The position numbers and the translations under genes are program-made. From Candidatus Falkowbacteria bacterium (GTDB taxonomy: Bacteria > Patescibacteriota > Patescibacteriia > XYB2-FULL-38-15): 60,671 nt of DNA. The DNA is taken from the NCBI GenBank assembly GCA_016214745.1, contig JACRNW010000009.1, forward strand, positions 1 to 60,671, read 5' to 3'. The notes under the pieces were generated by a model. It was given only the letters and a program-made list of their open reading frames with translations. It was not told where the DNA came from and made no database searches. Numbering within the stretch: the stretch's first letter is position 1; the number at the start of each line of letters is the position of its first letter. This document shows, one piece after another, positions 11 through 60,434 of the stretch.

Positions 11-123
11 CCCCGCACCAAGCCTTAGTACAAATAATACTTCAACGCAACGGGAGCCGCAGGCGTTTCCGTGATTTATATTTTTTATTATGGTCCATCA
101 TTCTTCGGGCTTTGGTGCTGGGG
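11..123. repeat. long imperfect hairpin element; arms CCCCGCACCAAGCC (11..24) and GGCTTTGGTGCTGGGG (108..123)
   Basis: The arms are reverse-complementary apart from two bulged A. The G/C clamp resembles the CCCCCAC hairpin family seen elsewhere in the window. Confidence 0.55.
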
Positions 124-13488: not shown

Positions 13489-13590
13489 CCCCCACACCTA
13501 AAAATGTACTTTGTATGGGTAGCCCGTGTGGGGAGTTAAATCTTTATAGCTAATCCGTTTTGTTCTGCATAAAAGGATTAGGTGTGGGGG
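13489..13590. repeat. CCCCCAC-clamped long hairpin (CCCCCACACCTAA ... TTAGGTGTGGGGG) in the ileS upstream region
   Basis: The 13-nt arms are perfectly complementary. An inner hairpin is CTAATCC..GGATTAG, and an alternative partner GTGTGGGG lies at 13526..13533. Confidence 0.7.
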
Positions 13591-13625: not shown

Positions 13626-16547
13626 ATGGCCGCAATGAATTTCCCCAAAATGGAAGAAGAAATCCTAAAATTTTGGGAAGATAATAAAATTTTTGAAAAA
13701 TCAGTCAATAAAAAGGCGCCGCATGGCGACTATGTTTTTTATGACGGTCCGCCTTTCGCCACGGGCACGCCGCACTACGGCCATATCGTTGCGAGCTTGA
13801 TGAAAGATGCCGTACCGAGATATTTCACGATGCAAGGCTACCGCGTCGAGCGCCGCTGGGGTTGGGATTGCCACGGCCTGCCAATTGAAAATATTGTTGA
13901 GCAAGAATTAAATGTCACAAGCAAAAAAGATATTGAAGAAAAAATCGGCGTGGATAAATTCAACGAACTTTGCCGCAGTAAAGTTTTAATGTTTGCCGAC
14001 GTTTGGAAAAAATTTATTCCCCGCATCGGCCGCTGGGTTGACATGGAACACGCCTACAAAACCATGGACTTGGATTATATGGAAAGTATTTGGTGGGTTT
14101 TCAAACAACTTTGGGACAAGGGACTAATTTACGAAGGGCACAAATCAATGCACATCTGCCCGCGCTGCGAAACCACTCTTTCTCAATCGGAAGTGAGTCA
14201 GGGGTATAAAGACACCGAAGACTTAGCTGTAGTTGTAAAATTTGCTTTGACCGACGAACCAAATACTTTTGTTTTGGCCTGGACAACCACGCCCTGGACC
14301 CTACCCGGAAATGTCGCTCTGGCGGTGAGCGAGGATATTGATTATTCAATCTGGGAAATAACTCACACAGACACTAATAAAAAAGAAAAAATTATTTTAG
14401 CAAGTAAAACATCAACCAACACATTAAAACTACCAGTGGACACTCGCGATCTTGTCGTGGGCGCGGAAAGTGTTGTTGGTCCCCCCTCACACCCTCCAAC
14501 AAAATATAAACTACTCAAAGAAATCAAAGGCAAAGATCTGATTGGCAAACCTTACGAGCCACTTTTCCCATATTTTGACAGTCCGGAAAACAGAGAAAGA
14601 GGTTTTAAAATTTATGCGGGAGATTTTGTCGCGACTGAAGAAGGAACTGGTGTGGTTCATATTGCTCCGGCTTTTGGTGAAGACGATTTGAAGCTTGGAA
14701 AAAAAGAAAATCTTCCTTTTATCCAACACGTTGATTTTTCCGGCCGCTTCACTTTGGGAGTTAAAGATTTCGCCGGCGATCTTGTAAAACCGGCCGCCAA
14801 CCCGTGGATCACCGATAAAAAAATTGTGCAATGGCTTGAAGAACGCGGCAAACTTTTTTCGCAAGAAAAGCACACGCACAGCTATCCGTTTTGCTGGCGT
14901 TGCGACACTCCTCTTCTAAATTATTCTACTTCATCGTGGTTTGTTAAGGTAACAGCTATAAAAGAAAAAATCTTAAAATTGGCGGAAAAAATTAATTGGG
15001 TTCCGGAACATATTAAAGAAGGCCGTTTCGGAAAATGGTTGGAAGGTGCGGAAGATTGGTCAATTTCCCGCCAACGATATTGGGGTTCAGTTTTGCCTAT
15101 CTGGAAATGTAAATGCGGCGAATTTCATGTTTTGGGAAGCCGCGAAGAGTTGGAAAAACTTTCCGGCCAAAAGGTGGACGACTTGCATAAACACTCAGTT
15201 GACAAATTAATTTTAAAATGTGAAAAATGCGGCGGCGAAATGCGGCGTGTTCCCGATGTTTTGGATTGCTGGTTTGAATCCGGTTCAATGCCTTACGCCC
15301 AAATGCATTATCCATTTGAAAATAAGAAAAAATTTGAAGAAAATTTTCCGGCTAAATTTATCGCTGAAGGCGTTGACCAAACTCGCTGCTGGTTTTATTA
15401 TCTTCATGTTTTGTCCACGGCCATCATGAACGACGTCGCCTTTTTAAATGTCATCGCGAATGGCATTGTCCTTGCCGAAAGCGGACAAAAAATGTCCAAA
15501 CGTTTAAAAAATTATCCTGATCCGACTGAAGTCATTGACCGTTACGGCGCCGACGCTCTCCGCTATTATTTGCTCACCTCGCCGGTAATGAAAGCTGACA
15601 CGCTTAATTTTTCCGTAAAAGGCGTTGATGAAATGTTCAAAAAATTAATAATGATTTTATGGAACGTCTTTTCTTTTTACGAGATGTACGCCGCGGATGA
15701 AATAAAACCCGTAACAAAATCAAAAAATATCTTGGACCAATGGATTGTCTCAAAATTACAGATTTTACTTCAGACCGTGACTGAAAAAATGAACGCATAC
15801 GATTTAGTCGCGGCTAACCGGCCGATAACGGATTTTGTAAATGATCTTTCCACTTGGTATCTCCGCCGAAGCAGAGATCGTTTTAAGGGAGATAATGAAA
15901 AAGATAAGAAAGCGGCGCTCGGAACGCTAAAATATGTTTTACTGACATTAAGTAAAATCATCGCGCCGTCAATTCCTTTTATCGCGGAAAAAATCTATCA
16001 GGAACTTAAAGGACCGGAAGAATCTGTCCATCTTGAAACTTGGCCTAAATTTGAAAAAAAATTAGTTGACCAAAAAATCTTGGATCAAATGGATTTGGCT
16101 AAAAAAATCGTGGAGGCCGGACTCGCGGCGCGCGCCTCAGCCGGAATAAAAATCAGGCAGCCGCTCGCTTCTTATTCTACGGCGCTGACTAAAACGCTTG
16201 ACCATGAATACGCAAGACTTGTTAAAGAAGAATTAAATATTTTGGATTTAAAATTTGGCGAGGATAAATTGGACACGGAACTGACCGAAGAATTAAAAGC
16301 CCAGGGTTTGATTCGTGAAATTGTCCGCACGGTTAACGCTCTCCGAAAAGACGCCGGCCTTTCAATTGCTGACCGCATTACCTTAAATTTTGAAACTACT
16401 GATCCACAAACGGAAAAAATAATACGTGATTTTGAAGATAAAATTAAAAAAGAAACTTTAAGCGATAAAATAGAAAAAGGAAAAACTGAGACGCCGCATC
16501 AAAAAGAAATTGAAGGCGGTCTTTGGCTCGGTGTTAAAAAAATATAA
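13626..16547 (+). CDS. ileS: isoleucine--tRNA ligase
   Basis: It has the PHYGHIV (HIGH) and KMSKRLKN (KMSKS) motifs, and its 973-aa length and overall pattern fit. Confidence 0.95.
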   Translation: MAAMNFPKMEEEILKFWEDNKIFEKSVNKKAPHGDYVFYDGPPFATGTPHYGHIVASLMKDAVPRYFTMQGYRVERRWGWDCHGLPIENIVEQELNVTSKKDIEEKIGVDKFNELCRSKVLMFADVWKKFIPRIGRWVDMEHAYKTMDLDYMESIWWVFKQLWDKGLIYEGHKSMHICPRCETTLSQSEVSQGYKDTEDLAVVVKFALTDEPNTFVLAWTTTPWTLPGNVALAVSEDIDYSIWEITHTDTNKKEKIILASKTSTNTLKLPVDTRDLVVGAESVVGPPSHPPTKYKLLKEIKGKDLIGKPYEPLFPYFDSPENRERGFKIYAGDFVATEEGTGVVHIAPAFGEDDLKLGKKENLPFIQHVDFSGRFTLGVKDFAGDLVKPAANPWITDKKIVQWLEERGKLFSQEKHTHSYPFCWRCDTPLLNYSTSSWFVKVTAIKEKILKLAEKINWVPEHIKEGRFGKWLEGAEDWSISRQRYWGSVLPIWKCKCGEFHVLGSREELEKLSGQKVDDLHKHSVDKLILKCEKCGGEMRRVPDVLDCWFESGSMPYAQMHYPFENKKKFEENFPAKFIAEGVDQTRCWFYYLHVLSTAIMNDVAFLNVIANGIVLAESGQKMSKRLKNYPDPTEVIDRYGADALRYYLLTSPVMKADTLNFSVKGVDEMFKKLIMILWNVFSFYEMYAADEIKPVTKSKNILDQWIVSKLQILLQTVTEKMNAYDLVAANRPITDFVNDLSTWYLRRSRDRFKGDNEKDKKAALGTLKYVLLTLSKIIAPSIPFIAEKIYQELKGPEESVHLETWPKFEKKLVDQKILDQMDLAKKIVEAGLAARASAGIKIRQPLASYSTALTKTLDHEYARLVKEELNILDLKFGEDKLDTELTEELKAQGLIREIVRTVNALRKDAGLSIADRITLNFETTDPQTEKIIRDFEDKIKKETLSDKIEKGKTETPHQKEIEGGLWLGVKKI

Positions 16548-17512: not shown

Positions 17513-17584
17513 TCTACAAATTACAAATCAACTACAAATATACAAATTTGTATATTCGTAAAAAATTTGTAATTCGTAGGATGT

Positions 17585-25382: not shown

Positions 25383-26675
25383 TTACTGTCTAATTAGCGA
25401 CAAAAACTCATTCGCGGTATTTATCAAACTGAATTTTTCCGCTTGTTTTTTGCCTTTTTCAACTAAACTTTTCCGCAAATTTTCATCAGTCAAACATTCG
25501 GCCATTGCTTTTGCCATTTCAGCCGGATTATACGGATCAACCATTAACGCCGCCTCACCCATTACCTCAGGTAGGGAAGAATTTGTGCTTACGATAACCG
25601 GCGTTCCGACTTGAGCTGCCTCTAACGGAGGAAAACCAAATCCTTCGTAAAAAGAAGGATAAACAAAAAGCCGCGCCAATTTATAAAAAGCAAATTTTTC
25701 TTCGGGAGAAATATAATTTATAAATTTTATGTCATCGCGTACCGGACTTTTTTCCGCCCGCGCCAAGATTCTTTTACAAAGCCACCCGCGCGGACCGACG
25801 ATGACTAACTTATAACTTATAACTTGGAACTTAGAACTTTGTTTGAAAATTTCAAAAGCTCTAATCAATCCCTTAATATTTTTTCTCGGCTCAAGCGTCC
25901 CCAAAAATAAAATAAAATTCTCCGGCAAATTATATTTTTTCTTAACTTCCTCAAGCCCCCTCACCCCCGCCTGCCACGCTAGCGCTGGCGTTGCGGGCAG
26001 GCCAACCCTCTCCCCGCTGGGGCGAGGGAGATTTTCCGCAATTTCCTCTCCCCTTGGGGGAGAGGCTAGGTGAGGGGTGACGCCGGAGCAAATGACACCG
26101 ACTTTTTCTGACACCACTTTGTATAACTCAACCAAATCTCTCTTCGTATTTTCCGAAACGGCAATGATTTTGTCCGCGCCGCGAATTAATTTTTGTGGAT
26201 TTACAAACCGATGCCACAGCCGCCGCTTCCAAGAAAAAAATCTCGGGTAGCGCAGAAAGGACAAATCGTGGATAGTGATAATCTTTTTCACGCCGCGCGA
26301 TACGGCAAGAAAATTGAGATTGGGAATAAAAAATAAATTCAGTTTCCCCTCACCCTTCCCTCTCCCCGACGGGGAGAGGGGCACCATGAACCATGAACTA
26401 TGAACTATCAACCGATCGATTTTCGGCCACCGCAAAAATTTAAAACAAAAATTCAATAATTTATTTGGCCACCTAAACCCGCAAAAATGAACGTTTTGAT
26501 ATTTTTTCCACTCTACTAAAAAATTATCTTCAACCTTTTTAAAAGAATTATAAAAAAGATAATATTGATTTTCTTTATCAATATCAAAAATGGCGTTCAA
26601 GAGTTCATATGTATACTCCCCAACGCCACTCCGCTCTTTTTCGAGCAATGACCTTATGTCAATCCCGATATTCAT
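25383..26675 (-). CDS. glycosyltransferase family 4 with in-frame palindromic insertions
   Basis: It has the EGFGFPPLEAAQVGTPVIVS motif. At 430 aa it is longer than its neighbours because of inserted segments. Confidence 0.85.
   Translation of the reverse strand: MNIGIDIRSLLEKERSGVGEYTYELLNAIFDIDKENQYYLFYNSFKKVEDNFLVEWKKYQNVHFCGFRWPNKLLNFCFKFLRWPKIDRLIVHSSWFMVPLSPSGRGKGEGKLNLFFIPNLNFLAVSRGVKKIITIHDLSFLRYPRFFSWKRRLWHRFVNPQKLIRGADKIIAVSENTKRDLVELYKVVSEKVGVICSGVTPHLASPPRGEEIAENLPRPSGERVGLPATPALAWQAGVRGLEEVKKKYNLPENFILFLGTLEPRKNIKGLIRAFEIFKQSSKFQVISYKLVIVGPRGWLCKRILARAEKSPVRDDIKFINYISPEEKFAFYKLARLFVYPSFYEGFGFPPLEAAQVGTPVIVSTNSSLPEVMGEAALMVDPYNPAEMAKAMAECLTDENLRKSLVEKGKKQAEKFSLINTANEFLSLIRQ
25807..25841. 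repeat. heptanucleotide tandem repeat AACTTAT AACTTAT AACTTGG AACTTAG AACTTTG (inside an ORF)
   Basis: This is read directly. Confidence 0.85.
25957..26077. repeat. compound G/C-rich palindromic element inside the GT4 ORF
   Basis: The outer pairing is CCCCTCACC...GGTGAGGGG. It encloses CCTGCC..GGCAGG, CCCTCTCCCC-gct-GGGGCGAGGG and CCTCTCCCC-tt-GGGGGAGAGG. Confidence 0.8.
26346..26381. repeat. G/C-rich palindromic element (CCCCTCACCC + CCCTCTCCCC-gac-GGGGAGAGGG) inside the GT4 ORF
   Basis: This is read directly. It is followed by the heptamer repeat CATGAAC x2 / TATGAAC / TATCAAC at 26385..26412. Confidence 0.8.
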
Positions 26676-29214: not shown

Positions 29215-29444
29215 ATATATTAGGTAATAAAGATGATGCCCTAAAATTTATCCGAGTAACTGTAAGCCGGATTCTGTGCCTTGCCCAACTTTTGATTGGG
29301 CAAGCGGTAGTCATCTATCTAGGATTTTGATTGCTCAAAACCTCAAGCGGCTGTTTTTGGCCTTGCACCGGATAGGTGTTTTCCCCAGCGCCCGTCACCG
29401 GGCTGTCCTGCGTGAGCTCTTACCTCACGATTTAACCCTTGCCT

Positions 29445-29520
29445 CCCCCACTTACCTTGGCATAAATCTCTCGCATTTTTATCTACCATCAAAACCAATT
29501 CATGCCAAAGTAAGTGGGGG
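29445..29520. repeat. CCCCCACTTAC-clamped hairpin at the P12 position of rnpB
   Basis: The arms are CCCCCACTTACCTTGGCAT...ATGCCAAAGTAAGTGGGGG. Confidence 0.8.
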
Positions 29521-29660
29521 ATCGGCGGTATGTTTCTGTTGCACTGTCCGTGGGCTTGGTCACTTGATGTTCGATTAAAGCTGCACCTTCCGCGTAAACG
29601 GAAGACACAACACACAAACAGAAATGCTTACTCCCCGTCGCTGTTAGCGACTATCTCTCT

Positions 29661-29714
29661 CCCCCACTTACTTTGACATAAATTATCGACGATTAATGTC
29701 AAGGTAAGTGGGGG
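29661..29714. repeat. CCCCCACTTAC-clamped hairpin inside rnpB
   Basis: The arms are CCCCCACTTACTTTGACAT...ATGTCAAGGTAAGTGGGGG. Confidence 0.8.
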
Positions 29715-29733
29715 ACGGTGTCCGGACTTTCCT

Positions 29734-30028
29734 CCCCCCACTTATTAAGCCTCATTCAAACTATGTCTCAATCTTTCCCTGATTCTGCGATAACCCTGTT
29801 TAAACATCTTTAATTTCCGCTCCCTGTCCCGTGCGTCTTTTGATGATTTATATGCTTCATAATAAACCAACTCAAATGGAGCACCGCTCTTCGTGGATTT
29901 AGATTGTTTCTTGTTATGTTCTTCTAGCCGCCTTCTCAAATCAGAAGTAAAACCAATATATAATTTTCCATTAATTTTACTTCTAAGAATGTAGCAATAA
30001 TGCATAACAAGGCTTAATAAGTGGGGGG
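29734..30028. repeat. CCCCCCACTTATTAAGCC-clamped hairpin at the P3 position of rnpB, enclosing the GIY-YIG ORF
   Basis: The 18-nt arms at 29734..29751 and 30011..30028 are perfectly complementary. Confidence 0.85.
29745..30005 (-). CDS. GIY-YIG nuclease superfamily protein (UPF0213/YhbQ-like, 86 aa)
   Basis: The protein reads MHYCYILRS..GKLYIGFTSDLRRRLEEHN...YYEAY.S..DARDRERKLK. It has the same orientation as rnpB, and its stop codon lies within the hairpin arm. Confidence 0.8.
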   Translation of the reverse strand: MHYCYILRSKINGKLYIGFTSDLRRRLEEHNKKQSKSTKSGAPFELVYYEAYKSSKDARDRERKLKMFKQGYRRIRERLRHSLNEA

Positions 30029-30074
30029 TAACTACCCATTACTCGGATAAATTTTAAGGTACCAAAATATCCTT

Positions 30075-30104
30075 TAAAATACCACAAATTTATAATTTTG
30101 TCAA
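30075..30104 (-). promoter_or_regulatory. candidate rnpB promoter TTGACA-N18-TATTTT
   Basis: It reads on the reverse complement immediately after the trpS stop. Confidence 0.4.
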
Positions 30105-33984: not shown

Positions 33985-34079
33985 AAATAAATAAAATTAA
34001 ACTATTATAAATTAAATGCCGGAGGGGAGAGTTGAACTCCCATGGCCTTGCGGCCACACGGCTCTGAACCGTGCGCCTG

Positions 34080-34187
34080 CCCCCACACCAATGCCGCGGG
34101 TGGGAGTTGAACCCACATGACCTTGCGGCCACACGGCTCTGAACCGTGCGTGTATACCATTTCACCACCGCGGCATTGGTGTGGGGG
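34080..34187. repeat. CCCCCACACCAAT ... ATTGGTGTGGGGG hairpin element carrying a complete tRNA
   Basis: The 13-nt arms stack continuously on the acceptor stem of the inner tRNA, giving a perfect 20-bp helix. Confidence 0.8.
34092..34174 (-). tRNA. tRNA-Leu(CAG), class II with a long variable arm
   Basis: The acceptor is GCCGCGG/CCGCGGC, the anticodon loop TTCAGAG, the variable arm TGGCCGCAAGGTCAT and the T-arm GTGGG-TTCAACT-CCCAC. No CCA is encoded. Confidence 0.9.
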
Positions 34188-34313
34188 TGAATATACCATT
34201 TCACCACCCCGGCATGAGGTTTGCGGTATGAGGAAAATCTGGTTTACGCCAACCGCGCGCTTGCGCAAAGACGTAAACCAATTTCAAAAAATAGAAGTTA
34301 AAATTTTTTTAAT

Positions 34314-37627: not shown

Positions 37628-38245
37628 ATGATTGAAATACGCTTGCACGGCCGGGGCGGCCAAGGCACGGTCACGGCGGCCGAATTGATTGCCGAAGCGG
37701 CTTTCCAGGACGGGAAATTTTCTCAAGCTTTTCCTTCTTTTGGCATTGAACGGCGTGGCGCGCCAGTCGAAGCCTTTGCCCGGATTTCCGATAAACCAAT
37801 TACTTTACATTCAAAAATATACGAACCGGATTATTTGATTATCCAAGACTCAACGCTCATTAATTTAGATCTTGTCCGGCAAGGAGTCGGCCCAAAAACC
37901 TTTATCATTATTAATACTGAAAAGAGCGCCGCTGATTTTAAAAAAATCTTTGAAAAAAATACTATTCAAACTATTCCGGCGACGCAAATCGCGCTCGCGA
38001 TTTTAGGAAAACCTATTATTAACACCATTTTGCTTGGCGCTTTTGCGGGCGTTTGCGGTTTGCTTAATCCCGCCTCTTTAACCTCGGCCATCTCGGCCCG
38101 TTTTAAAAAAGAAATTGCCGAAAAAAATATCAAGGCCATGAATACCGCCTATTGCCACTGCAGCTCAAATTCCGAGTATTGTTTCACGGCGGAAAAATGT
38201 ACGATAGCCGTAGACGGCGGGCAAAAATTTTCCGTCACTTGCTGA
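37628..38245 (+). CDS. porG: pyruvate/2-oxoacid:ferredoxin oxidoreductase gamma subunit
   Basis: It has the HGRGGQGTVTAAELIAEAAF motif. Confidence 0.9.
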   Translation: MIEIRLHGRGGQGTVTAAELIAEAAFQDGKFSQAFPSFGIERRGAPVEAFARISDKPITLHSKIYEPDYLIIQDSTLINLDLVRQGVGPKTFIIINTEKSAADFKKIFEKNTIQTIPATQIALAILGKPIINTILLGAFAGVCGLLNPASLTSAISARFKKEIAEKNIKAMNTAYCHCSSNSEYCFTAEKCTIAVDGGQKFSVTC

Positions 38246-38294
38246 TCCTAAGGATCCTGAGGATCGTAAGGATCTTAAAGATCCTGAGGATAAT
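38244..38294. repeat. 9-bp-periodic array GATCCTAAG GATCCTGAG GATCGTAAG GATCTTAAA GATCCTGAG GATAAT
   Basis: This is read directly between the porG stop and the porD start. It contains five GATC sites at exact 9-bp spacing. Confidence 0.9.
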
Positions 38295-38302
38295 ATTCTA
38301 TC

Positions 38303-38587
38303 ATGAAAATCGCTAAAAAAAATGAATTGTTTACCAAACCGGGGACGACCATCGTCAACAAAACTGGCGCCTGGCGGGTTTATTATCCAATTGTTGATCA
38401 CGAAATTTGCATTGGCTGCGGCACCTGCGACCGCGTCTGTCCAGAAGGAGTTTGTTTTAAAACAGACCAAAAAAATTCCAAAGGCCTGACTTTTTACGAC
38501 CGCGACCTGGATTTTTGCAAAGGCTGCGGTCTTTGCGCCAAAGAATGCCCGGTAAAAGCTATTTCCATGCACTTTGAAGAAAAATGA
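38303..38587 (+). CDS. porD: pyruvate:ferredoxin oxidoreductase delta subunit (2x[4Fe-4S])
   Basis: It has the CIGCGTCDRVCP and CKGCGLCAKECP motifs. Confidence 0.9.
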   Translation: MKIAKKNELFTKPGTTIVNKTGAWRVYYPIVDHEICIGCGTCDRVCPEGVCFKTDQKNSKGLTFYDRDLDFCKGCGLCAKECPVKAISMHFEEK

Positions 38588-38635
38588 TCTTTTGATAAGA
38601 TCTTTAAGATAGTTAAGATTTTTAGGATTTTTAAG
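38588..38635. repeat. degenerate 9-bp-periodic array (TAAGATCTT TAAGATAGT TAAGATTTT TAGGATTTT TAAG)
   Basis: This is read directly. Confidence 0.75.
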
Positions 38636-39004
38636 ATGGATAATTCTTACTCAAAAACTTTTCGACAATTAGTAGTTTGGCAAGAAGCAAAAAAGTTATG
38701 CTTAAATATTTATAGAATAACAAAAAATTTCCCTCAAGAAGAAGTATACGCCCTGGTTTCCCAACTAAGAAGATCTGCCTATTCTGTCTTGGCAAACATC
38801 GCCGAGGGCAATGAGCGCAAGGGTATTAAAGACCGTCTAAATTTTTTTAATATTGCGAGGGGTTCATTGGTGGAATTAGATTGTCTCTTAGAATTATCAT
38901 TTGACCTCAATTATTTAAATGAAAAGGATTATAAAAATTTGTTAGAAAAAATAAATAAAGTGGCATATCTATTAAATAAATTCATCGTCGCTCAAAAATC
39001 CTAA
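38636..39004 (+). CDS. four-helix-bundle protein of the 23S rRNA intervening-sequence protein (S23p/Avd-like) family
   Basis: The pattern is FRQLVVWQEAKKL...VSQLRRSAYSVLANIAEGNER...FFNIARGSLVELDCLLE. Confidence 0.8.
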   Translation: MDNSYSKTFRQLVVWQEAKKLCLNIYRITKNFPQEEVYALVSQLRRSAYSVLANIAEGNERKGIKDRLNFFNIARGSLVELDCLLELSFDLNYLNEKDYKNLLEKINKVAYLLNKFIVAQKS

Positions 39005-39038
39005 GTATCGTAAATATCTTAAAAATCGTAAAGATCCT
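39002..39038. repeat. degenerate 9-bp-periodic array (TAAGTATCG TAAATATCT TAAAAATCG TAAAGATCC)
   Basis: This is read directly, just upstream of the porA ATG. Confidence 0.75.
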
Positions 39039-40187
39039 ATGCTAAAATTCATGGAAGGCTCGCGCGCCATCGCCGAAACCGTGAAACTCTGCCGCCCCGA
39101 CGTGGTCGCCGCCTATCCAATTACTCCCCAAACTCATATCTTGGAAAATCTGGCCGAATTTAAGGCGGAGGGCCAGGCTAATTTTGAATACTTAAAAACG
39201 GAAAGCGAAATGGCCGCGGCTTCAGCCGTGCTGGGAGCAAGCGCCGCGGGCGCGAGAGTTTACACAGCCTCGGCCTCACAGGGATTGCTTTTGATGACCG
39301 AAGTTTTATTTAACATTGCCGGTATGCGTTTGCCGGTTGTGATGACTTGCGCTAACCGCGCCGTTTCCGCTCCGATAAATATTTGGAACGACGAACAAGA
39401 CGCGATGACGCTTCGGGACGCCGGCTGGATGATGTTTTTCGCCGAGGACAATCAAGAAGCGGCCGATCTTCATATTCTCTCTTACAAAATTGCCGAGGCG
39501 ACAAATCTTCCCGTTATGGTTTGTATGGATGGTTTTAGTCTGACTCACACTTTTGAACCGGTGGAAATTCGCGATCAAAAATTAGTTGATAAATTTTTGC
39601 CTCGGCGCAAACTGATTTCCGGCCAATATTTAAATCCCCAGAATCCAATAACCCTGGGCGGAATTTCTTCGCCGGAAAATTATATGCCCGCGCGGGAAAA
39701 ATTACATCAAGACCTAATAGACAGTAAAAAAATGATTCAAAAATTTTTTACTGAATTTAATAAATTATTTATAAAAAGAAAAAATTACAACGGCTTTATT
39801 GAATATTCCGGACCGCGTAACCCCAAACTGATGATTATTGCCATGGGTTCGGTTCTGGGAACCGCGAAAACTATTCTAAACAAAGAAAAACTTTCCGATA
39901 AAGTCGGCGTTTTAAAAATTAAATGTTTCCGCCCCTTTCCCGACGCCGAAATTTCAAAAATAATTTTGAGTATCAGGCCAAAACACATCGCCGTAGTTGA
40001 CCGAGCTGTTTCCTTGGGGCAAGGCGGAATTTTAGCCGGCGAAATAAAAAATCTTTGCCCCATCGGTATGGTTTCAAATTTCATTGTGGGTCTTGGCGGC
40101 AGAGATATTACTCCGGAACATATTGAAAAAATTGTAAAACTAAGTCTAAATGATAAAGCTTGCACGACGCGGTTTTATGATAAATAA
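39039..40187 (+). CDS. porA: pyruvate:ferredoxin oxidoreductase alpha subunit
   Basis: It has the AAYPITPQTHILE motif, and its 382-aa length fits. Confidence 0.9.
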   Translation: MLKFMEGSRAIAETVKLCRPDVVAAYPITPQTHILENLAEFKAEGQANFEYLKTESEMAAASAVLGASAAGARVYTASASQGLLLMTEVLFNIAGMRLPVVMTCANRAVSAPINIWNDEQDAMTLRDAGWMMFFAEDNQEAADLHILSYKIAEATNLPVMVCMDGFSLTHTFEPVEIRDQKLVDKFLPRRKLISGQYLNPQNPITLGGISSPENYMPAREKLHQDLIDSKKMIQKFFTEFNKLFIKRKNYNGFIEYSGPRNPKLMIIAMGSVLGTAKTILNKEKLSDKVGVLKIKCFRPFPDAEISKIILSIRPKHIAVVDRAVSLGQGGILAGEIKNLCPIGMVSNFIVGLGGRDITPEHIEKIVKLSLNDKACTTRFYDK

Positions 40188-51706: not shown

Positions 51707-51733
51707 AACCTACAATTTTTATCAATTACAAAA

Positions 51734-51807
51734 TGGGCGTGGATGGACTCGAACCATCGACCCCGGCTTTATAAGAGCCGTGCTCTAACCAGCTGAGCTA
51801 CACGCCC
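51734..51807 (-). tRNA. tRNA-Ile(UAU)
   Basis: The acceptor is GGGCGTG/CACGCCC, the anticodon loop CTTATAA and the T-loop TTCGAGT. No CCA is encoded. Confidence 0.85.
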
Positions 51808-52040
51808 ACAATTTGTTTTTTAAAGCATAACGGAAAAGGATGATTTTTTCAAGACCATAAAATTATCCACTTAATATTTTAATTTCGGAAAAATATAAAA
51901 TAAAAAAAATAAAAGTTATCCACATTTTGCTTGTTGACATCGAAAAAAAGGTTTATAATTAAATAATGATGATGTTATAAAATTTTATTTTAAAAAATTT
52001 TATTCTCATTTTATCTTTTGTAAAAAGGAGGTGAACCAAC

Positions 52041-54386: not shown

Positions 54387-54495
54387 AACCCGGCACTGTC
54401 CTACTTTCCCCAAAGAGTATCATCGGGGCTGAGGTGCTTAACTTCTGTGTTCGGGATGGGAACAGGTGTGGCCACCTCGCTAGTAGCACCGGGAT
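54387..54495 (-). rRNA. rrf: 5S rRNA
   Basis: The reverse complement contains CCCATCCCGAACACAGAAGTTAAGC and paired CCCGGTG/CGCCGGG-like termini. Confidence 0.9.
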
Positions 54496-54665
54496 TTCAA
54501 GCTAAAAATGCTTGAAATTTTTTGTATGTTTGTATGTTTGAACAATTCTTGTGGTTAGAATCGACCTATTAGTACGGCTCGGCTCAAATCCTTACGGACC
54601 TTACACCTGCCGCCTATCAACCTTGTGTTCTTCAAGGGGTCTAAACGAAATTTAATCTTGAAACC

Positions 54666-54700
<35 letters not shown>

Positions 54701-54822
54701 TGCCGAACGTAGCTACCCAGCTATGCCCTTGGTAGGACAACTGGTACACTAGAGGTTCGTCCTTCCCGGTCCTCTCGTACTAGGGAAGAGTTTTCTCAAA
54801 TTTCCGCGCCCACGACAGATAG

Positions 54823-54874
<52 letters not shown>

Positions 54875-54887
54875 TGGCGAACAGCCA

Positions 54888-54957
<70 letters not shown>

Positions 54958-55671
54958 ATGGACTCTTGGGGGAGATCAGCCTGTTATCCCCGGAGTAGCT
55001 TTTATCCGTTGAGCTTCGACCATCCTATATTGGATCGTCGGATCACTAAGTTATGCTTTCGCAACTCAGCGACTTGTAAGTCTTTGAGTAAAGCTGGCTT
55101 GTGCCTTTACGCGTCCAGCCCGGTTTCCATCCGGGCTAAGCCAACCTTTGTAAACGCCTCCGTTACTTTTTAGGAGGCAACCGCCCCAGTTAAACTACCC
55201 ACCAGACACTGTCTCCCAAACCGGATTACGGTCTCGGATTAGAATTAAAATTAAACAAGGGTGGTGTCTCATTGGCGCCTTGCGGCTCCCACCTACGCTG
55301 AACATGTTTAGTCTTAATCCAATATCAAGTTGTAGTAAAGCTTCACGGGGTCTTTTCGTCTAGCCGTGGGTAAAGGGCATCTTCACCCCTCTTGCAATTT
55401 CACCGAGTCCCTCGTTAAGACAGTTCTCAAGTTGTTATGCCATTCGTGCGGGTCGGAACTCACCCGACAAGGGATTTCGCTACCTTAGGACGATTATAGT
55501 TATCGCCGGCGTTCATCAGCGCTTAAGTTCAAGGCTGCCCCGTCTTGCGACGGATGACCTCTCCCCTTAACGTTCTGACACTGGCCAGGCATCAGCCCCT
55601 ATACGTTGCCTTACGGCTTTGCAGGGACCTGTGTTTTTGGTAAACAGTCACTTGAGATATTTTTATTGCAA

Positions 55672-55802
55672 CCCCCCACATAACTTTCGATGCAAGTATT
55701 AAGATACTTGCCAAATCTTTGAAAGATTTTTCCGCGATTTATTCCGGAAACACTATAAATTTCACACTTTCTCTTTTCTTTTCTCGAAAGTTATGTGGGG
55801 GG
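55672..55802. repeat. CCCCCCACATAACTTTCGA ... TCGAAAGTTATGTGGGGGG hairpin expansion in 23S (helix 63 region)
   Basis: The 19-nt arms are perfect. The element lies between GGGATAAGCCTTG and TTGCAATAAAAATATCTCAAGTGACTGTTTACC on the rRNA strand. Confidence 0.8.
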
Positions 55803-57000
55803 CAAGGCTTATCCCGAAGTTACGCCTAGTTTTTTTGCTTAGTTCCTAAACGAGGGTTCTCTCGTACACCTTAGGCTTCCCGCCTTGTCCACCTGTGTCG
55901 GTTTACGGTACGGTCTCCGTATCTTTAGCGCCCATAAGATTTTCTAGGCCCCTACTTTGCAAGAATCGGCTCCACCTTGCGGCTTCACCTGCGAACCGTC
56001 CACGATAAATCGGAACGGCCCAAGCGCATAACCAAATCGCTCTCTTACCACATAGAAGCGCACTTACGGACAAAAATACGGAGGTGCAGGAATATTAACC
56101 TGCTCTTCCATCGGCTACGCCTTTCGGCCTCGCCTTAGGATCGACTAACCCTGGGTCGATTTGCGTTGCCCAGGAAACCTTAGACTATCGGTGCTCTGAG
56201 TTTTCATCAGAGTTTTTGTTACTTATGCCAACATTCTCACTTCTCAAGCCTCCACCGCTCCTTACGGATACGACTTCGCTGACTTGAGAAAGCTCCCCTA
56301 CCGCTCTCCGATAAATCGGAGAACCCGTGCCTTCGGTACCGAATTTAGTCCCGATTATTTTCGACGCAGAAAAACTCGACTAGTGAGCTGTTACGCTTTC
56401 TTTAAAGGATGGCTGCTTCTAAGCCAACCTCCTAGTTGTTTGAGTCTTTCCACCACCTTTAACACTTAATTCGGATTTAGGGACCTTAAGCGACGATCTG
56501 GGCTGTTTCCCTTTTGACTAGTGAAGCTTAGCCCTCACAGTCTGACTCCCGGACTAAAAACATAGTATTCGGAGTTTGATTGGTGCAATCGACTTTCGCC
56601 GAATTGAACCATTCAGTGCTCTACCCCTATATTGTATATCCGAGGCTAGCCCTACAGCTATTTCGGGGAGAACCAGCTATTACCGAGTTCGATTGGAATT
56701 TCACCTCTAGCCACAACTCATCCCCATGTGTTGCACAGCATGTGGGTTCGGGCCTCCAGTCCGATTTCTCGGACCTTCACCCTGGTCATGGCTAGCTCAC
56801 CCGGTTTCGGGTCTCGTGTGCGCGACAAACGCCCTATTAAGGCTCGCTTTCACTTCGGCTTCCTCTCCATGGGAGATTAACCAAGCCACGCACAGCAAAC
56901 TCGTTGGCTCATTCTTCAATAGGAACGCTGCAACCCTTGCGGGCCGCAACTCCTTGTAAGCGTATGGTTTCAGGTACTTTTCATCGGCCTAACCGGCCTG

Positions 57001-57037
<37 letters not shown>

Positions 57038-57400
57038 ATCACTAAAAAATATTTAGTCTTGGCACATAGTCGTGCCGGATTCCCACGGGATTTCACGAGG
57101 CCCGTGGTACTTAAGTCAATCACAGCAAGATTACAGCTCCTTTTGAGTACAGGACTTTCACCTTCTCTGGTCCCTGTTTCCACAGGAGTTCTTCTAGGAA
57201 AGCTGTCCCGATTGCTCGGGCTTTTCCCTTGCCTGTCTTATTGGGAAGACAACGCGACTGACTCGCGTATCCTTGTTAGCAACGGCCCAAACCTTTAATT
57301 AGCAGCGGCCGAGAAGTCTTGCGACCCCCCGACCATCCGCTAAAACACTAACAAGGTTTTCGACTTTTCCCCGTTCGCTCGCCACTACTTGGGGAATGGG

Positions 57401-57496
57401 CTAGTTAATAAGTTTATAAGTTCATCAGCCAGTAAATAAATACCGACCAACTTAAGTTCCGCAAAACGGAACGAAACTTATAAACTTAAAAACTAG
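57401..57496. repeat. AT-rich hairpin expansion in 23S domain I
   Basis: The arms are CTAGTTAATAAGTTTATAAGTT...AACTTATAAACTTAAAAACTAG. It is inserted between GGAAAAGAAACAAAG and ATTCCCCAAGTAGTGGCGAGCGAAC on the rRNA strand. Confidence 0.75.
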
Positions 57497-58250
57497 TCTT
57501 TGTTTCTTTTCCTCCGGTTACTGAGATGTTTCACTTCACCGGGTTGCCTTCGCTACCCTATGAATTCAGATAGCGATGATCCGATCTTCAATCGGACCGG
57601 GTTACCCCATTCGGAAATCTCCGGATCAAAGGTTGCTTGCCACCTCCCCGAAGCTTATCGCAGGCTACTACGTCCTTCATCGTTTTTTAGTGTCTAGGCA
57701 TCCACCATACGCCCTTATATCTAACCACAAGAATTGTTAAAACATACATTTTACAATTCTCATTTTTATGTTGGCTCTCTTTACTTTGTTGTTGGGTATA
57801 TAAGATGCTCTTTTATTCAATTGTTAATGAACAATTTTTTTCTGTTTCTCGCCTCTCGTTTTATTTAGAAACCAGAGGCGGGAGCAAAAAATAATTTTTT
57901 GAAAAAGGACTAAAAAACCGCTCTTTTCGAGCGGCTTGGTACGACCAAAAAATGGGTTAACCGCTCGGGAACTTAAAAGTTAAAACTTGTTTTACCATAT
58001 TTTGCCCAATATCAGAGGAAAATCGTCAGATGTAGTTCTGGATAAAATGTGGACAACTTCCTCTGTTTTCTTAGTACATTAGTATTTTAATACCATCTAA
58101 AAAAGCTGTCAACCCCGTTAGAAATCTGTTTAATATTTTACAAAGTTATTTTAAAAAGTCAAGCCGGGATTAATATTCTCAATCTGCACAAAAAAATTTT
58201 ATTTAAAATTTTTTCTCAAAGATTTCTAACGGGGTCAAGAGGATTTAAAT

Positions 58251-58324
58251 AAATACTCCGTGTTATCTGCGCTCGCTCGAAAATGAAATTAAAATTTCAT
58301 TTCTCTCACTCGCTTGATAATAAA
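58251..58324. repeat. copy 3 of the 3-copy conserved element
   Basis: The sequence is AAATACTCCGTGTTATCTGCGCTCGCTCG, then AAAATGAAATT-AA-AATTTCATTT, then CTCTCACTCGCTTGATAATAAA. Confidence 0.85.
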
Positions 58325-58369
58325 AAAGAACCGGCAGGATCGTCGCTTTCTAAGCAACTTTCCTGCCGG
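58322..58369 (-). terminator. intrinsic terminator of 58390..59325
   Basis: The minus strand reads CCGGCAGGA...TCCTGCCGG followed by TTCTTTTTT. Confidence 0.55.
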
Positions 58370-58389
58370 CGTTCTCTACCTCCTTCGGG

Positions 58390-59325
58390 CTATCCCCCGG
58401 CGCCGCACACCCGTCCGACGATCTCGCAAGCCGCAGGCTGGGTGAGCGTCTCGCGTGCGCCGAACATCGTGCCCGGAGCGCCCACCGGAGCCATGGCGGC
58501 AAGCCGACCGCTCAGCCACTTACGGATTGCTTGCGCCTGATCGGATTTGATGAAGCGCTTCGTGGCATCGATGCGTCCGATCGCCTCCGCGATCACCGAA
58601 AGCGCGTCTTCCCTCTGCCGACATGCCGTCTTCCACTTGCCCTCAAGCTCCTCGGCCCGCTTCTTCGCCTCGTCGCGCTCGGCCATGAGTCGCTTGATGT
58701 CCACGAGCATCACACTAGCCCGCAAGATCCACTCGTACACACGGTCGTCAATGAAGTAATACTCGCAGAAGTCGAGGGCGGTTCCGATGTCAGGCGTAAT
58801 CGAGTGGTTCTCGGCGTCAACGAGCGTCACGTGCGGAGAAAGGGCGTTCCGCCAAGGGTCCGATGGAAGCCTGACTTTCCAACCCTGAGCTTGGCCCACC
58901 TCGTTGAAGCGATGACGGTACACACAGCCCCAGGAGTTGAACCAACCGCCGAGCGGAACCTTGATGACCGGACACTTCAGGAAAACGGCGTACTCGTCCT
59001 CTTTCTCGCCACGCCGCGTGAATGAGACTTGGATCTTCTGCTCTTCGTCGCGCCAGTACCAGGCGTTGTAGCCCTTGACGTTCCGCCACCAGTAGTCGCG
59101 GAGCCATCTGATCGGGTGTCGAACACCGATGATCTCAGCCAACATCAGGATGGTTACAAGACCCAGGATGATGCCCCCGCGCATTACCCACTTCTCTTTG
59201 TCCAGGTCATAATGGACAATGACCCAGAGCACCGTCGCGCTCAGCAGGAACAGCAAAGGGAAAACCAACAACTTCAGCCCGCCCTTGGGAATCGGCCGAT
59301 ACTTCTGGACTTCCTGCAGATCCAT
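58390..59325 (-). CDS. membrane protein (311 aa; two N-terminal TM segments, Trp-rich region, C-terminal coiled coil), unknown family
   Basis: The start MDLQEVQKYRP is preceded by AAGGAGA. The ORF is GC-rich, and the longest ORF extends to 59397. Confidence 0.65.
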   Translation of the reverse strand: MDLQEVQKYRPIPKGGLKLLVFPLLFLLSATVLWVIVHYDLDKEKWVMRGGIILGLVTILMLAEIIGVRHPIRWLRDYWWRNVKGYNAWYWRDEEQKIQVSFTRRGEKEDEYAVFLKCPVIKVPLGGWFNSWGCVYRHRFNEVGQAQGWKVRLPSDPWRNALSPHVTLVDAENHSITPDIGTALDFCEYYFIDDRVYEWILRASVMLVDIKRLMAERDEAKKRAEELEGKWKTACRQREDALSVIAEAIGRIDATKRFIKSDQAQAIRKWLSGRLAAMAPVGAPGTMFGARETLTQPAACEIVGRVCGAGG

Positions 59326-59390
59326 GACTCGTTCTCCTTTCCGATCCCGACACTCTGGTCGTGGATGGGTGGCGCGGCGGGACAACCTTT

Positions 59391-59414
59391 CCCCCACTTA
59401 CTAGTAAGTGGGGG
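59391..59414. repeat. perfect 24-nt palindrome CCCCCACTTAC-TA-GTAAGTGGGGG
   Basis: It is identical to the stem sequence of the rnpB hairpins. It lies in the leader of 58390..59325. Confidence 0.9.
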
Positions 59415-59524
59415 ACTATTTGTCCGGACCGCCAAAGAGATATGCCAGGCCCATCCTGGCCACGTTTTTAATTTTTAATTTTGATAAAAAAGTCAAGGCC
59501 AAAATCCCCTGGCGCTTCGCGCTG

Positions 59525-59583
59525 CCCCCTTTGCAAAAGGGGGAAAAATTCTCTCCCTTTTCTAAAGGGAGAGTTAGAGAGGG
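59525..59583. repeat. G/C-rich palindromic elements CCCCCTTTGC-AAAAGGGGG and CTCTCCCTTT-tct-AAAGGGAGAG + TTAGAGAGGG
   Basis: This is read directly. The architecture matches 25957..26077 and 51504..51534. Confidence 0.7.
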
Positions 59584-59629
59584 ATTTTTGTTTTTTGTAT
59601 ATTTGTAATTAATTTGTAATTTGTAGAAT

Positions 59630-59661
59630 AAAAAAAGTGGGCCACCCCGAAGGTTTCCCAC
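59630..59661 (-). terminator. intrinsic terminator of the three-gene unit
   Basis: The minus strand reads GTGGGAAACC-ttcg-GGGTGGCCCAC followed by TTTTTTT. Confidence 0.55.
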
Positions 59662-59711
59662 TATGTCCCTCCCTCCTCGCTTTTTGATTGGCTCTAAGGC
59701 CAAGAGACTTA

Positions 59712-59921
59712 TTATTGCCGGCAGATCCACTTGCTCCTGACCCAGGCCAAGAGAGCCACGACTGCGAGCGCCACCGTGACGGCGAGGCCAAGGGCAAAGG
59801 CGATCTGGTCCTCTGCCCCAAGGATGAACGCGAAGACAATCGCAGCCACTCCTCCAAGAAGCGCGATAGTCGCGTCCTTCCCGCCCGCCGATCGTTCCTT
59901 CCAAAACCGGATGAACCCCAT
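59712..59921 (-). CDS. two-TM miniprotein (69 aa)
   Basis: GGGAGGA lies upstream. The TM segments are IALLGGVAAIVFAFILGA and FALGLAVTVALAVVALLAWV. Confidence 0.6.
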   Translation of the reverse strand: MGFIRFWKERSAGGKDATIALLGGVAAIVFAFILGAEDQIAFALGLAVTVALAVVALLAWVRSKWICRQ

Positions 59922-59955
59922 CAGCTGTCCTCCCTAACCATCACCGCGGGTTGCG

Positions 59956-60135
59956 TTACTCTTCGTAGCGCTTCTTCGCGTCGCGCCAAGCGAACACGAT
60001 CGCCGCCGTGATGAAGACGAGAAAGAGAACGACGAGCGGAATGCCGCCCGACAGCTCGAGCTTGACGCGCGGCAGACCGGCGGCGATACAAATCGCCGCG
60101 AGGACGAGACAGATCACCGACAGAACTTTTTCCAT
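59956..60135 (-). CDS. two-TM miniprotein (59 aa)
   Basis: AAGGAGGGG lies upstream. Its ATG overlaps the upstream TAA as TAATG. Confidence 0.6.
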   Translation of the reverse strand: MEKVLSVICLVLAAICIAAGLPRVKLELSGGIPLVVLFLVFITAAIVFAWRDAKKRYEE

Positions 60136-60434
60136 TACCCGCCCCTCCTTGCCCTCACGGCTCCCCAGTTCTGATCGCGCCAGTTCTTGAGCGCTTCGCC
60201 ATGCTCCCAAAACCGGAACAGAGCGATCATCACATGGGCGACTTGAGAATTCGAAACTCGCAAGATCGGATCGTCGATTGTTTTCTCGACGATATCCTCC
60301 AGTCGCAATCCTTGGTTGAGCTTCGCTTCCATCCGGTCTGCCCATCGTTCCGCGTAGTTCAGGAGACGAAGCTCGTATCTCCCGGAATTTGCCGCGCGAA
60401 ACCTCTGCCAGAACACCCCATCTTTCACTTTCAT
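60135..60434 (-). CDS. soluble 99-aa protein, unknown family
   Basis: AGAGGAGG lies upstream of the ATG. It is the first gene after the promoter at 60466..60494. Confidence 0.6.
   Translation of the reverse strand: MKVKDGVFWQRFRAANSGRYELRLLNYAERWADRMEAKLNQGLRLEDIVEKTIDDPILRVSNSQVAHVMIALFRFWEHGEALKNWRDQNWGAVRARRGG

Follow-up and report, generated by a model that had tools for sequence, protein, structure and literature searches.

Palindrome-bounded hairpins, one carrying a GIY-YIG nuclease gene, replace helices of the RNase P RNA in a Candidatus Falkowbacteria bacterium and probably belong to a mobile, REPIN/RAYT-like family

The palindromic elements of Rickettsia are short, settle inside essential genes at positions where the structure tolerates them, and stay in the gene. 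REP/REPIN sequences and their RAYT transposases have reportedly been described by Nunvar 2010, Bertels and Rainey 2011 and Ton-Hoang 2012, and Brown et al. 2015 are said to have first noted GIY-YIG open reading frames (ORFs) in ribosomal RNA (rRNA) insertions of the Candidate Phyla Radiation (CPR). These insertions have since been described as neither introns nor homing-like (Tsurumaki et al. 2024, PMC11270868). In Coxiella burnetii, the intervening sequence (IVS) in helix 45 of the 23S rRNA encodes S23p and is excised by RNase III (PMC4990558). Here we analysed a stretch of 60,671 nt, called the window throughout, from a Candidatus Falkowbacteria bacterium (Patescibacteriota; GCA_016214745.1, contig JACRNW010000009.1, positions 1-60,671, forward), in which rnpB, the gene for the RNA of ribonuclease P (RNase P), carries three hairpin elements, one of them with a GIY-YIG nuclease gene inside. 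In its full form the element consists of a perfect 12-30-bp inverted repeat with CCCC(N)CAC / GTG(N)GGGG ends around one gene for a GIY-YIG protein of 80-90 aa, whose ATG falls inside the 5' arm or shortly past it and whose stop codon usually falls in the 3' arm. With a probability of about 0.7, we read these hairpins as three members of a mobile, REPIN/RAYT-like family of palindrome-bounded hairpins that exploits stable-RNA transcription.

The three hairpins of rnpB, at helix P3, at the junction J5/7 and at helix P12, were all closed by CCCCCACTTA/TAAGTGGGGG stems, with folding z-scores from -7.7 to -8.7 (Table 1). The stem of the P12 copy, 24 nt long, was 92% like that of the J5/7 copy. Allowing at most one mismatch, CCCCCACTTA occurred 10 times in the window against 2.8 expected, a number reached in none of 100 shuffles, and CCCCCAC occurred 17 times against 4.6 expected. 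The ORF in the P3 element was read on the same strand as rnpB, with its ATG 4 nt past the 5' arm and its stop codon TAA within the 3' arm. An earlier note on this DNA had reported the three near-identical stems, two of them at P3 and P12, together with the intact co-oriented ORF that ends in the 3' arm; all of this was borne out, and the hairpin that the note had left unassigned was placed at the P5.1 position in J5/7. No promoter-like site was found inside the P3 element, where there is no space for one because the 5' arm and the ATG are only 4 nt apart; the rnpB promoter is the only candidate placed to drive the ORF.

The host gene was secure, as had been claimed. The Rfam model RF00010 matched it at 123 bits (gathering score 100) over 29726..29247 on the minus strand. 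This match stops at 29726 because Rfam takes the second hairpin for P3, so that the covariance-model check suggested in the earlier note upheld the gene and misassigned P3. Read by hand, the ends are closed by P1 (UUUAUCCGAGUAA / UUACUCGGAUAAA) and P2 (GGUAGU / ACUACC), and the 5' strand of P4 (AGGAAAGUCCGGAC) stands directly after P3, with ACAGAAUCCGGCUUA as its 3' strand. The P4 pseudoknot strands GGAAAGUCCGG and ACAGAAnCCGGCUUA, P1/P2 and the P8-P11 and P13/P14 modules are present, which places the RNA in type A. After P2 follow the 295-nt P3, the 5' strand of P4, P5 (ACCG / CGGU), the J5/7 hairpin, P7, P8 (UCGCUAACAGCGA), P9 with 75 extra nt, P10/11, the P12 hairpin, P13, P14, a minimal P15 without P16/17, P18, a P19-like hairpin and the 3' strand of P4. 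The minimum-free-energy fold recovered P1, P3 and the three hairpins (z = -8.7). RNase P RNA of this clade has the additional 75 nt in P9 (29540..29640), neither P16/P17 nor the GGU motif of L15, and the P19-like hairpin (29275..29330); the enlarged P9, the missing P16/17 and the P19-like hairpin are lineage features outside the present finding, because relatives free of inserts have them too; these relatives also lack the GGU motif. The transfer RNA (tRNA) genes seen in the window do not encode CCA.

Comparison with relatives showed that the three hairpins are replacements. Using the downstream sugar-transferase gene, we fetched 63 syntenic loci from metagenomes, among which four close relatives (L090, L092, L093 and L095) had the same gene order and a sugar transferase 84-90% identical to that of the window. 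Their rnpB genes measured about 450 nt, against roughly twice that length in the window, and were about 90% identical to it in the core, and a scan of them found no CCC(N0-2)CAC-type hairpin. At each of the three sites the relatives hold a short native hairpin unrelated to that of the window (Table 1), which in the window has been swapped entirely, flush at its base, between flanks that are identical or nearly so (ACACCGT before and A(A/G)AGAGATAG after one replacement, CCGCCGAT before and AGG(T/C)AAGG after another); at the P3 junction, two or three bases on the 5' side differ. Because native hairpins occupy the same three sites in relatives, the hairpins of the window are flush replacements and not the lineage-conserved helices that the earlier note had named as the outcome that would overturn it. 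The placement of the elements at helix tips in that note has to be corrected, since whole helices are exchanged. The GIY-YIG ORF was present in rnpB at only 5 of the 63 syntenic loci, that is, sporadically. These results show a filled/empty polymorphism between close relatives, with flush replacement of dispensable helices.

Two other features were seen at the syntenic loci. Between rnpB and the sugar transferase, some close relatives (L092, 1400..2000; L093, 1065..1660; L154, 7929..8516) have a gene whose product of about 195 aa has no recorded Pfam hit; this gene is missing from the window. In the fairly close relatives L094 (1000..2000) and L151 (1200..2000), rnpB contains long AT-rich hairpins and short tandem repeats (e.g. 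GAACTTAAGAACTTAAAAC) at P3, P5.1, P9, P12 and P19, which set the P4 strands up to 570-760 nt apart; they hold no ORF, and the scan found no CCC(N0-2)CAC hairpin in them, though P3 of L094 closes with CCCCTAC.../...GGGG.

Table 1. Elements, genes and hairpins of the window, with the native hairpins of relatives
Feature	Coordinates	Strand	Details
RNase P RNA gene rnpB, type A core	29247..30051	minus	about 805 nt; from RF00010, hand-read helices and relatives
Sigma-70-like promoter of rnpB, TTGACA-17-TGnTATTTT	30076..30104	minus	just upstream of P1; conserved in relatives
ORF-bearing hairpin element at P3	29734..30028	minus	295 nt; 19-bp perfect stem CCCCCCACTTATTAAGCCT; arms 30028..30010 and 29752..29734
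GIY-YIG nuclease ORF, UPF0213/YhbQ type	29745..30005	minus	86 aa, intact; PF01541 E = 3.6e-18
ORF-less hairpin element at J5/7 (P5.1 position, P5-P7)	29661..29714	minus	54 nt; -28.6 kcal/mol, z = -7.7
ORF-less hairpin element at P12	29445..29520	minus	76 nt; -40.9 kcal/mol, z = -8.0
Native P3 hairpin in relatives			36 nt; CTCTCATTTTTCC-GTTTAAAATC-GGGGAAAAGAGAG
Native J5/7 (P5.1-like) hairpin in relatives			TTCGGCATAAAGCCGAA; TTCGGC-ATAAA-GCCGAA
Native P12 hairpin in relatives			CCGCCGAAAGGCGG; CCGCC-GAAA-GGCGG
Clamp hairpin with tRNA cargo	34080..34187	minus	20-bp stem CCCCCACACCAATGCCGCGG; -69.1 kcal/mol; complete tRNA-Leu(CAG) 34175..34091 inside
Outer tRNA-Leu(CAG), clamp in D-loop region	34017..34213	minus	called by ARAGORN after removal of the clamp
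ORF-less hairpin element at 23S rRNA helix H63	55672..55802	minus	131 nt; 19-bp stem CCCCCCACATAACTTTCGA; 108-nt insert at about 1762 of the large-subunit (LSU) rRNA model
ORF-less hairpin element, 5' leader of class I aminoacyl-tRNA synthetase gene	13489..13590	unstranded	102 nt; stem CCCCCACACCTAA; z = -4.7
Minimal palindrome CCCCCACTTAC-TAG-TAAGTGGGGG	59391..59414	unstranded	same terminus as the three rnpB copies; between two minus-strand ORFs
Degenerate hairpin CCCCGCACCAAGCC...GGCTTTGGTGCTGGGG	11..123	unstranded	two stem bulges; z = -3.0; 1 of 200 shuffles folds as well

The same architecture recurred in many other CPR genomes. Homologues of the ORF were overwhelmingly from CPR/Patescibacteria. 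In a scan of one genome per GTDB species we found at least 597 relatives and kept the best 80 loci; the family survey covered 88 loci with 95 ORF copies from other CPR genomes. A perfect inverted repeat of 12-30 bp with the outer ends (N)CCCC(N)CAC / GTG(N)GGGG enclosed 70 of the 95 copies, which represent 66 distinct elements. These were 275-354 nt long (median 299), with a median of 6 nt from the 5' arm to the ATG, the stop codon within the 3' arm in 49 of the 66, and only about 5-35 non-coding nt in the interior besides the ORF. Hairpins of CCCC(N)CAC polarity numbered 78 in 401 kb, compared with 2 and 0 for control motifs of opposite polarity. Protein identity correlated with the arm (terminus) variant, and none of 2000 Mantel permutations reached the observed correlation, which shows that ORF and termini are inherited together. 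The subfamilies prefer certain sites; the GCCCCTCAC clade, for example, is found at tRNA 5' ends. The ORF is intact, with invariant catalytic residues, in dozens of CPR genomes, and stems of this type recur in other RNAs; neither a decayed ORF nor a stem confined to one gene, both of which the earlier note had listed as possible refutations, was found.

Hosts were assigned by a tool call or by a flanking motif. P3 of rnpB is occupied in the window and at nine further loci (10 of the 66 distinct elements), and other rnpB sites account for 4 of the 66, namely J5/7 (L058), the P12 region (L084) and P15-17 (L028, L088). Further elements lie in 16S rRNA (L024, L043), in 23S rRNA (L001/L002, L041/L060, L068, L087), at the 5' ends of tRNA-Ala, -Lys, -Val and -Pro (13 loci), in a T-box leader (L004-L006) and in operon spacers (31 loci), often 0-11 nt past a stop codon. 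The ORF and the host RNA shared one strand in 31/31 tool-called hosts, and the operon neighbours of spacer copies were mostly co-oriented with the ORF. The proposal of a family that colonises structural RNAs therefore stands for rnpB, rRNA, tRNA and T-box hosts, and falls short for about half of the family, which sits in operon spacers. Insertion into protein-coding sequence was considered and rejected, the 31 copies outside the named RNA hosts being all intergenic. In the 20 of these 31 loci that were scanned, Rfam at gathering score called no host RNA at the element, a search that riboswitches or leaders broken by an insert could escape, as the T-box of L004 does.

The closest homologues illustrate this spread of hosts. 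The ORF most similar to that of the window (69% identity) lies in a 23S rRNA gene between CCCCCCACTTATTAGGAC and GTCCTAATAAGTGGGGGG, with the stem of the window changed in a compensatory manner in its inner part. A 62%-identical ORF forms P3 of rnpB in a more distant lineage, where J5/7 and P12 are ordinary. A 53%-identical ORF stands in an apparent T-box leader, with AGAAAGTAGGGTGGCACCGCG after the 3' arm and a class II aminoacyl-tRNA synthetase gene downstream. At L004 (2880..3300; Pacebacteria, GCA_017991395.1), a GIY-YIG hairpin lies in an apparent T-box leader ahead of a class II aminoacyl-tRNA synthetase gene, in which Rfam calls no T-box, presumably owing to the 276-nt insert.

ORF-less relatives accompany the ORF copies. 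Near the latter we found hairpins without an ORF (50-215 nt) and bare palindromes (24-38 nt) whose termini are of the same type; palindromes like the minimal one of the window adjoin ORF copies in L026, L044, L050, L051 and L085. Past the C-tract, the run identical to the resident ORF copy averaged 6.3 nt, and that identical to copies of other genomes averaged 1.4 nt (18 comparisons, one of which, L051, may concern the ORF copy's own arm). In their interiors the ORF-less copies do not resemble the ORF copy, and they therefore did not arise from it by simple deletion. In this analysis cheap gap extension made identity figures uninformative, and contiguous blocks alone were used. ORF-bearing and ORF-less forms can occupy one gene or one site: in rnpB of L028, ORF-less copies occupy P3 and J5/7 while P15-17 holds an ORF copy; in that of L046, the ORF is in P3 and P12 holds a copy without it; and at the H63 site of 23S rRNA, the window and L001 have an ORF-less copy where L068 has one with the ORF.

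The encoded protein belongs to the UPF0213/YhbQ branch of the GIY-YIG superfamily (PF01541). Residues Y3, Y5, Y16, G18, R26, H30 and E50 were invariant or nearly so in 40 homologues. An AlphaFold2 model of the 86-aa protein (predicted local distance difference test score, pLDDT, 92) had the order strand-strand-helix-strand-helix. By sequence, the best PDB matches were the UPF0213 proteins BH0048 (E = 2e-14) and EF2693 (E = 1.4e-09). By fold, the nearest neighbours were BH0048 and the Slx1 nuclease domain (TM-score on query 0.63-0.67; 0.60-0.67 over the Slx1 domains, with root-mean-square deviations of 1.4-4.2 Å), and the catalytic domain of I-TevI scored lower (0.42-0.48). The group I intron endonuclease model TIGR01453 of NCBIfam gave 30.6 bits, below its cut-off of 56.05. 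The ORF consists of the catalytic domain only and lacks a DNA-binding domain, so that the two-domain build of I-TevI is absent. A single cognate homing site is disfavoured because many unrelated insertion sites are in use.

At tRNA hosts the elements have a particular relation to the gene. In 11 of 13 loci the element is flanked on either side by a copy of the initial 10-13 nt of the tRNA, which itself begins in the 3' arm, 2-4 nt from its edge. An intact tRNA is thereby regenerated, with the element in its leader. One tRNA (L015) carries two tandem copies of the element. Loci with repeats at tRNA-Ala, -Lys, -Val or -Pro were L013, L015, L017, L018, L022, L026, L034, L036, L039, L040, L045 and L049 (around 2480-2770 in most), and at tRNA loci the upstream repeat and the 5' arm can form a small alternative hairpin, GGGGC-CCGTA-GCCCC.

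In the window, a clamp hairpin had been noticed in a tRNA-Leu gene. The reading as an insert in a single tRNA-Leu has to be corrected: the clamp, its stem being CCCCCACACCAAT plus the acceptor stem, encloses a complete tRNA-Leu(CAG), and the entire hairpin lies in the D-loop region of another, outer tRNA-Leu(CAG). The outer gene has intact acceptor and T stems with compensatory changes relative to the inner one. At the same site, L154 (4346..4431) and L155 (4356..4441) each have a single, plain tRNA-Leu(CAG), which represents a third sequence type. In L152 (3817..4090), the closest relative, a tRNA-Leu of the third type stands in a TCCCGCC/GGCGGGA clamp; the host is a tRNA of the inner type of the window, whose anticodon arm it replaces, clamp included. 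Judged from these sequences, it looks as if copies of a tRNA, carried by hairpins, had replaced that tRNA one after another.

A mobile family could account for these observations in the following way. The elements sit at peripheral helices that can be exchanged for another stable helix, and the catalytic core of the RNase P RNA is intact; the GC clamp would insulate the fold of the host from the insert. Since the element lacks its own promoter, as seen in the window, and is always oriented with the strongly transcribed unit that contains it, we infer that the primary transcript of the host serves as the precursor of the messenger RNA (mRNA) for the nuclease. The long perfect duplex (19-25 bp) would be a substrate of RNase III, whose cleavage is likely, by analogy with rRNA IVSs (PMC4990558, PMC11270868), and would free the ORF segment as a near-leaderless mRNA. 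RNase P RNA would then be left as fragments that P1, P2 and the stump of P3 keep together, or intact with a giant P3. The nuclease, without a DNA-binding domain, may act structure-specifically on the hairpins or cruciforms that the conserved termini form in DNA, and would then spread its own cassette and, in trans, ORF-less hairpins with the same termini, as RAYT does for REP/REPIN. The ORF-bearing copy may be autonomous, as first suggested in the earlier note.

The likeness to REPIN/RAYT lies in a small nuclease gene within inverted palindromic repeats and in dispersed non-coding hairpins in the same genome, whose sequence matches the flanks of the resident nuclease and varies between genomes. 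RAYT proteins differ in being HUH/Y1 enzymes (IS200/IS605-like) that work through covalent single-stranded DNA intermediates, whereas a hydrolytic GIY-YIG enzyme is found here, and REPINs occupy the spaces between protein genes, not the genes of ribozymes, rRNA or tRNA. The two enzyme families being different, the resemblance indicates how the system may work and not membership. With I-TevI and the Seg enzymes the element shares the GIY-YIG domain, the insertion in an essential gene and a start codon in or beside a hairpin of the host transcript; I-TevI, however, has 245 aa with a linker and a site-specific DNA-binding domain, compared with 86 aa, no ribozyme, many unrelated sites, and a sequence and fold nearer to UPF0213 and Slx1 here. 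The Rickettsia palindromic elements differ in having no associated nuclease gene and in lying mostly in frame in protein genes. Miniature inverted-repeat transposable elements (MITEs) and transposons likewise have inverted repeats, but the target-site duplications (outside tRNA hosts) and the origin by deletion of a parent that characterise MITEs were not found. Origin of the ORF-less copies as deletion-derived MITEs was rejected, since the alignments share termini only, with L046 as a possible exception.

Several points weigh against a mobile family. The locus sample was seeded with the protein, so that ORF-bearing copies are over-represented. No target-site duplication was detected outside tRNA hosts, where the 10-13-nt repeat of tRNA nucleotides 1-11 is the one flanking direct repeat seen. 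The ORF-less interiors are unrelated to the ORF copy and termini alone are shared, a pattern that could stem from gene conversion or from selection favouring a GC clamp convergently, and not from mobilisation in trans. In the window itself, the termini of the hairpin in the synthetase leader, the tRNA clamp and the 23S copy diverge from those of the resident ORF copy after CAC (variants CACACC, CACATA), and no cognate nuclease for these three is visible in its 60 kb. We know of no activity for this nuclease subfamily. GIY-YIG enzymes hydrolyse DNA and are alone incapable of strand transfer, which leaves the chemistry of insertion unexplained.

A bolder form of the proposal, which we regard as tentative and hold with less than even confidence, is a new class of mobile element for stable-RNA genes, in which an Slx1-like nuclease made up of the catalytic domain alone reads hairpin or cruciform DNA, not a sequence, and drives a 'helix swap' of a native helix-encoding palindrome for the element, flush at its base and without target-site duplication. 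If this were true, the primary transcript of RNase P RNA would double as the mRNA of a nuclease, and a variant that landed in an essential tRNA gene would persist because it brings a substitute tRNA with it, which would explain the nested tRNA-Leu(CAG) in the window and in L152.

Of the competing explanations, an unlikely one that nevertheless fares best is that the hairpins are fixed, no longer mobile IVSs excised by RNase III, like those in the 23S rRNA of Salmonella, Leptospira or Coxiella, with the GIY-YIG gene either along as a passenger or domesticated for repair and expressed from a borrowed strong promoter. It agrees with the RNA-processing half of our proposal and differs only on mobility. 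As in IVSs, the inserts stand at peripheral helices (P3, J5/7 and P12 of rnpB; H63 of 23S rRNA, a variable helix), and their long, perfect stems of 19-25 bp have the length of an RNase III substrate; an ORF-bearing IVS cut out by RNase III is known (PMC4990558), and short CPR rRNA insertions at known IVS sites have been interpreted in this way (PMC11270868). The Coxiella IVS further resembles the element as a selfish-looking insert at a peripheral helix of a stable RNA, with a long closing stem and a small ORF, that is transcribed with its host RNA and tolerated because fragmentation or extension there is harmless. Yet S23p is a four-helix protein and not a GIY-YIG nuclease, and its ORF is decaying and apparently untranslated; IVSs are known only in rRNA, at fixed sites and with no ORF-less family that shares their termini; and excision by RNase III, shown for the Coxiella IVS, is only inferred for the elements of the window. 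Fixed sequences also sit poorly with filled and empty states among close relatives at three sites of one gene, with the same ORF-plus-stem cassette in unrelated hosts and in tandem at one tRNA, with termini that track the resident nuclease, and with catalytic residues strongly conserved in dozens of copies, unlike a decaying passenger such as the eroding S23p ORF.

It is less probable still that the hairpins are a new kind of spliced intron, cut out and religated at the flanks by a host endonuclease and a ligase (e.g. RtcB) or by an unrecognised ribozyme, so that RNase P RNA, rRNA and the outer tRNA-Leu would become continuous again. CPR rRNA insertions are, according to Brown et al. 2015, reportedly absent from mature rRNA, and the intact halves of the outer tRNA-Leu around the clamp would be sensible if this tRNA were repaired at the RNA level. 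The unrelated ORF-less interiors and the perfect duplex stems, which lack a bulge-helix-bulge motif, speak against splicing, and at tRNA hosts the element lies in the leader that RNase P removes, so that splicing is unneeded. Rfam at gathering score matched no group I or II intron family in the whole window, in agreement with the earlier reading that no such core surrounds the ORF, and the intron hypothesis was rejected on this ground and because about 5-35 non-coding nt per full element leave no room for a ribozyme.

Ordinary lineage-specific helix expansions or a metagenome assembly artefact, with a coincidental likeness of stems, are very improbable: rnpB of the clade does vary greatly at P3, P5.1, P9, P12 and P19, as in the AT-rich expansions of L094 and L151, and the enlarged P9 is a lineage feature common to the relatives, but motif counts far exceed those of shuffles, the scan for hairpins gave 78 against 2 and 0 for the control motifs, close relatives lack the hairpins, and many samples and phyla supply independent contigs with this architecture.

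Beyond rnpB, the earlier note had listed related hairpins elsewhere in the window. The bare palindrome, the 23S hairpin and the hairpin of the synthetase leader were all confirmed; the gene behind the last (13626..16547) matches tRNA-synt_1. The hairpin near the left end of the window is present, but it is degenerate, and its membership in the clamp family is weak. The bare palindrome was also considered as part of a 16S gene upstream of the 23S gene and rejected, there being no small-subunit rRNA match and the region holding ORFs without Pfam hits; no 16S gene upstream of the 23S gene lies within the window.

The 23S gene (54549..57728, minus) measures 3180 nt against 2925 nt in the model, with the 5S gene downstream at 54388..54493. 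Of its further inserts, one measures about 104 nt, has an AT-rich stem of 22 bp (57401..57496) and stands near model position 225; another, of roughly 100-150 nt, stands near position 312. The adjoining region 57729..60671 has a G+C content of about 52%, compared with about 42% elsewhere, and minus-strand ORFs of 335, 162 and 129 aa without a Pfam match, of which the 335-aa product looks like a genuine membrane or coiled-coil protein; the region may be acquired DNA.

Other palindromes and repeats were recorded in the window. A family 4 glycosyltransferase gene (25383..26675, minus) encodes 430 aa, compared with 366 aa in its neighbour, and holds within its coding region three GC-rich palindromes of 21-23 nt, CCCTCTCCCC-N3-GGGGAGAGGG, at 26006..26029, 26045..26067 and 26357..26380; CCCCTCACC and GGTGAGGGG motifs adjoin them, in a manner reminiscent of in-frame palindromic elements. 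Unrelated to the CCCCCAC family are the short AT-rich repeat arrays (TAAGATCTTTAAGAT...) at 38245..39039, with long imperfect inverted repeats around ORFs (38.3-39.0 kb), and a 33-nt palindrome at 17514..17579. The tRNA-Ile at 51733..51808 has the anticodon UAU, which is uncommon in bacteria.

The insertions described for CPR rRNA (PMC11270868) come from the same clade and carry the same protein family, and the 23S H63 hairpin of the window, L001, L024, L041, L043, L068 and L087 belong among them. A term search of that paper for hairpins, inverted repeats, palindromes and RNase P came back empty. It does not describe the bounding repeat, which ends in the conserved CCCC(N)CAC, nor the relatives that lack an ORF or are minimal palindromes, nor the hosts beyond rRNA, namely rnpB with four or five sites, the 5' ends of tRNAs, a T-box leader and the spacers of operons. 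On CPR rnpB inserts or hairpin-bounded GIY-YIG elements we found nothing beyond this paper in literature outside subscription journals, and the searchable literature yielded no report of a protein gene inside a bacterial RNase P RNA. By this comparison, the architecture of the element, its ORF-less satellites, the flush replacement of helices and the form with tRNA cargo appear to be new, as does, from the genomes surveyed, the finding that many CPR lineages have a gene for a protein within their RNase P RNA.

These results make several questions testable now: whether the precursor of a ribozyme serves as an mRNA, whether RNase P RNA works in pieces in vivo, and how the many non-intron insertions of CPR stable RNAs arose. 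One architecture would unite the GIY-YIG ORFs of CPR rRNA, the oversized structural RNAs of CPR bacteria and the abundant annotations as 'GIY-YIG family protein'. For UPF0213/YhbQ, a family to our knowledge without established function, structure-specific cleavage of palindromic DNA becomes a candidate activity. The elements also defeat annotation by covariance models, with P3 misassigned in the window, rnpB missed in several loci and the T-box missed in L004, and insert-aware models would improve the annotation of CPR genomes.

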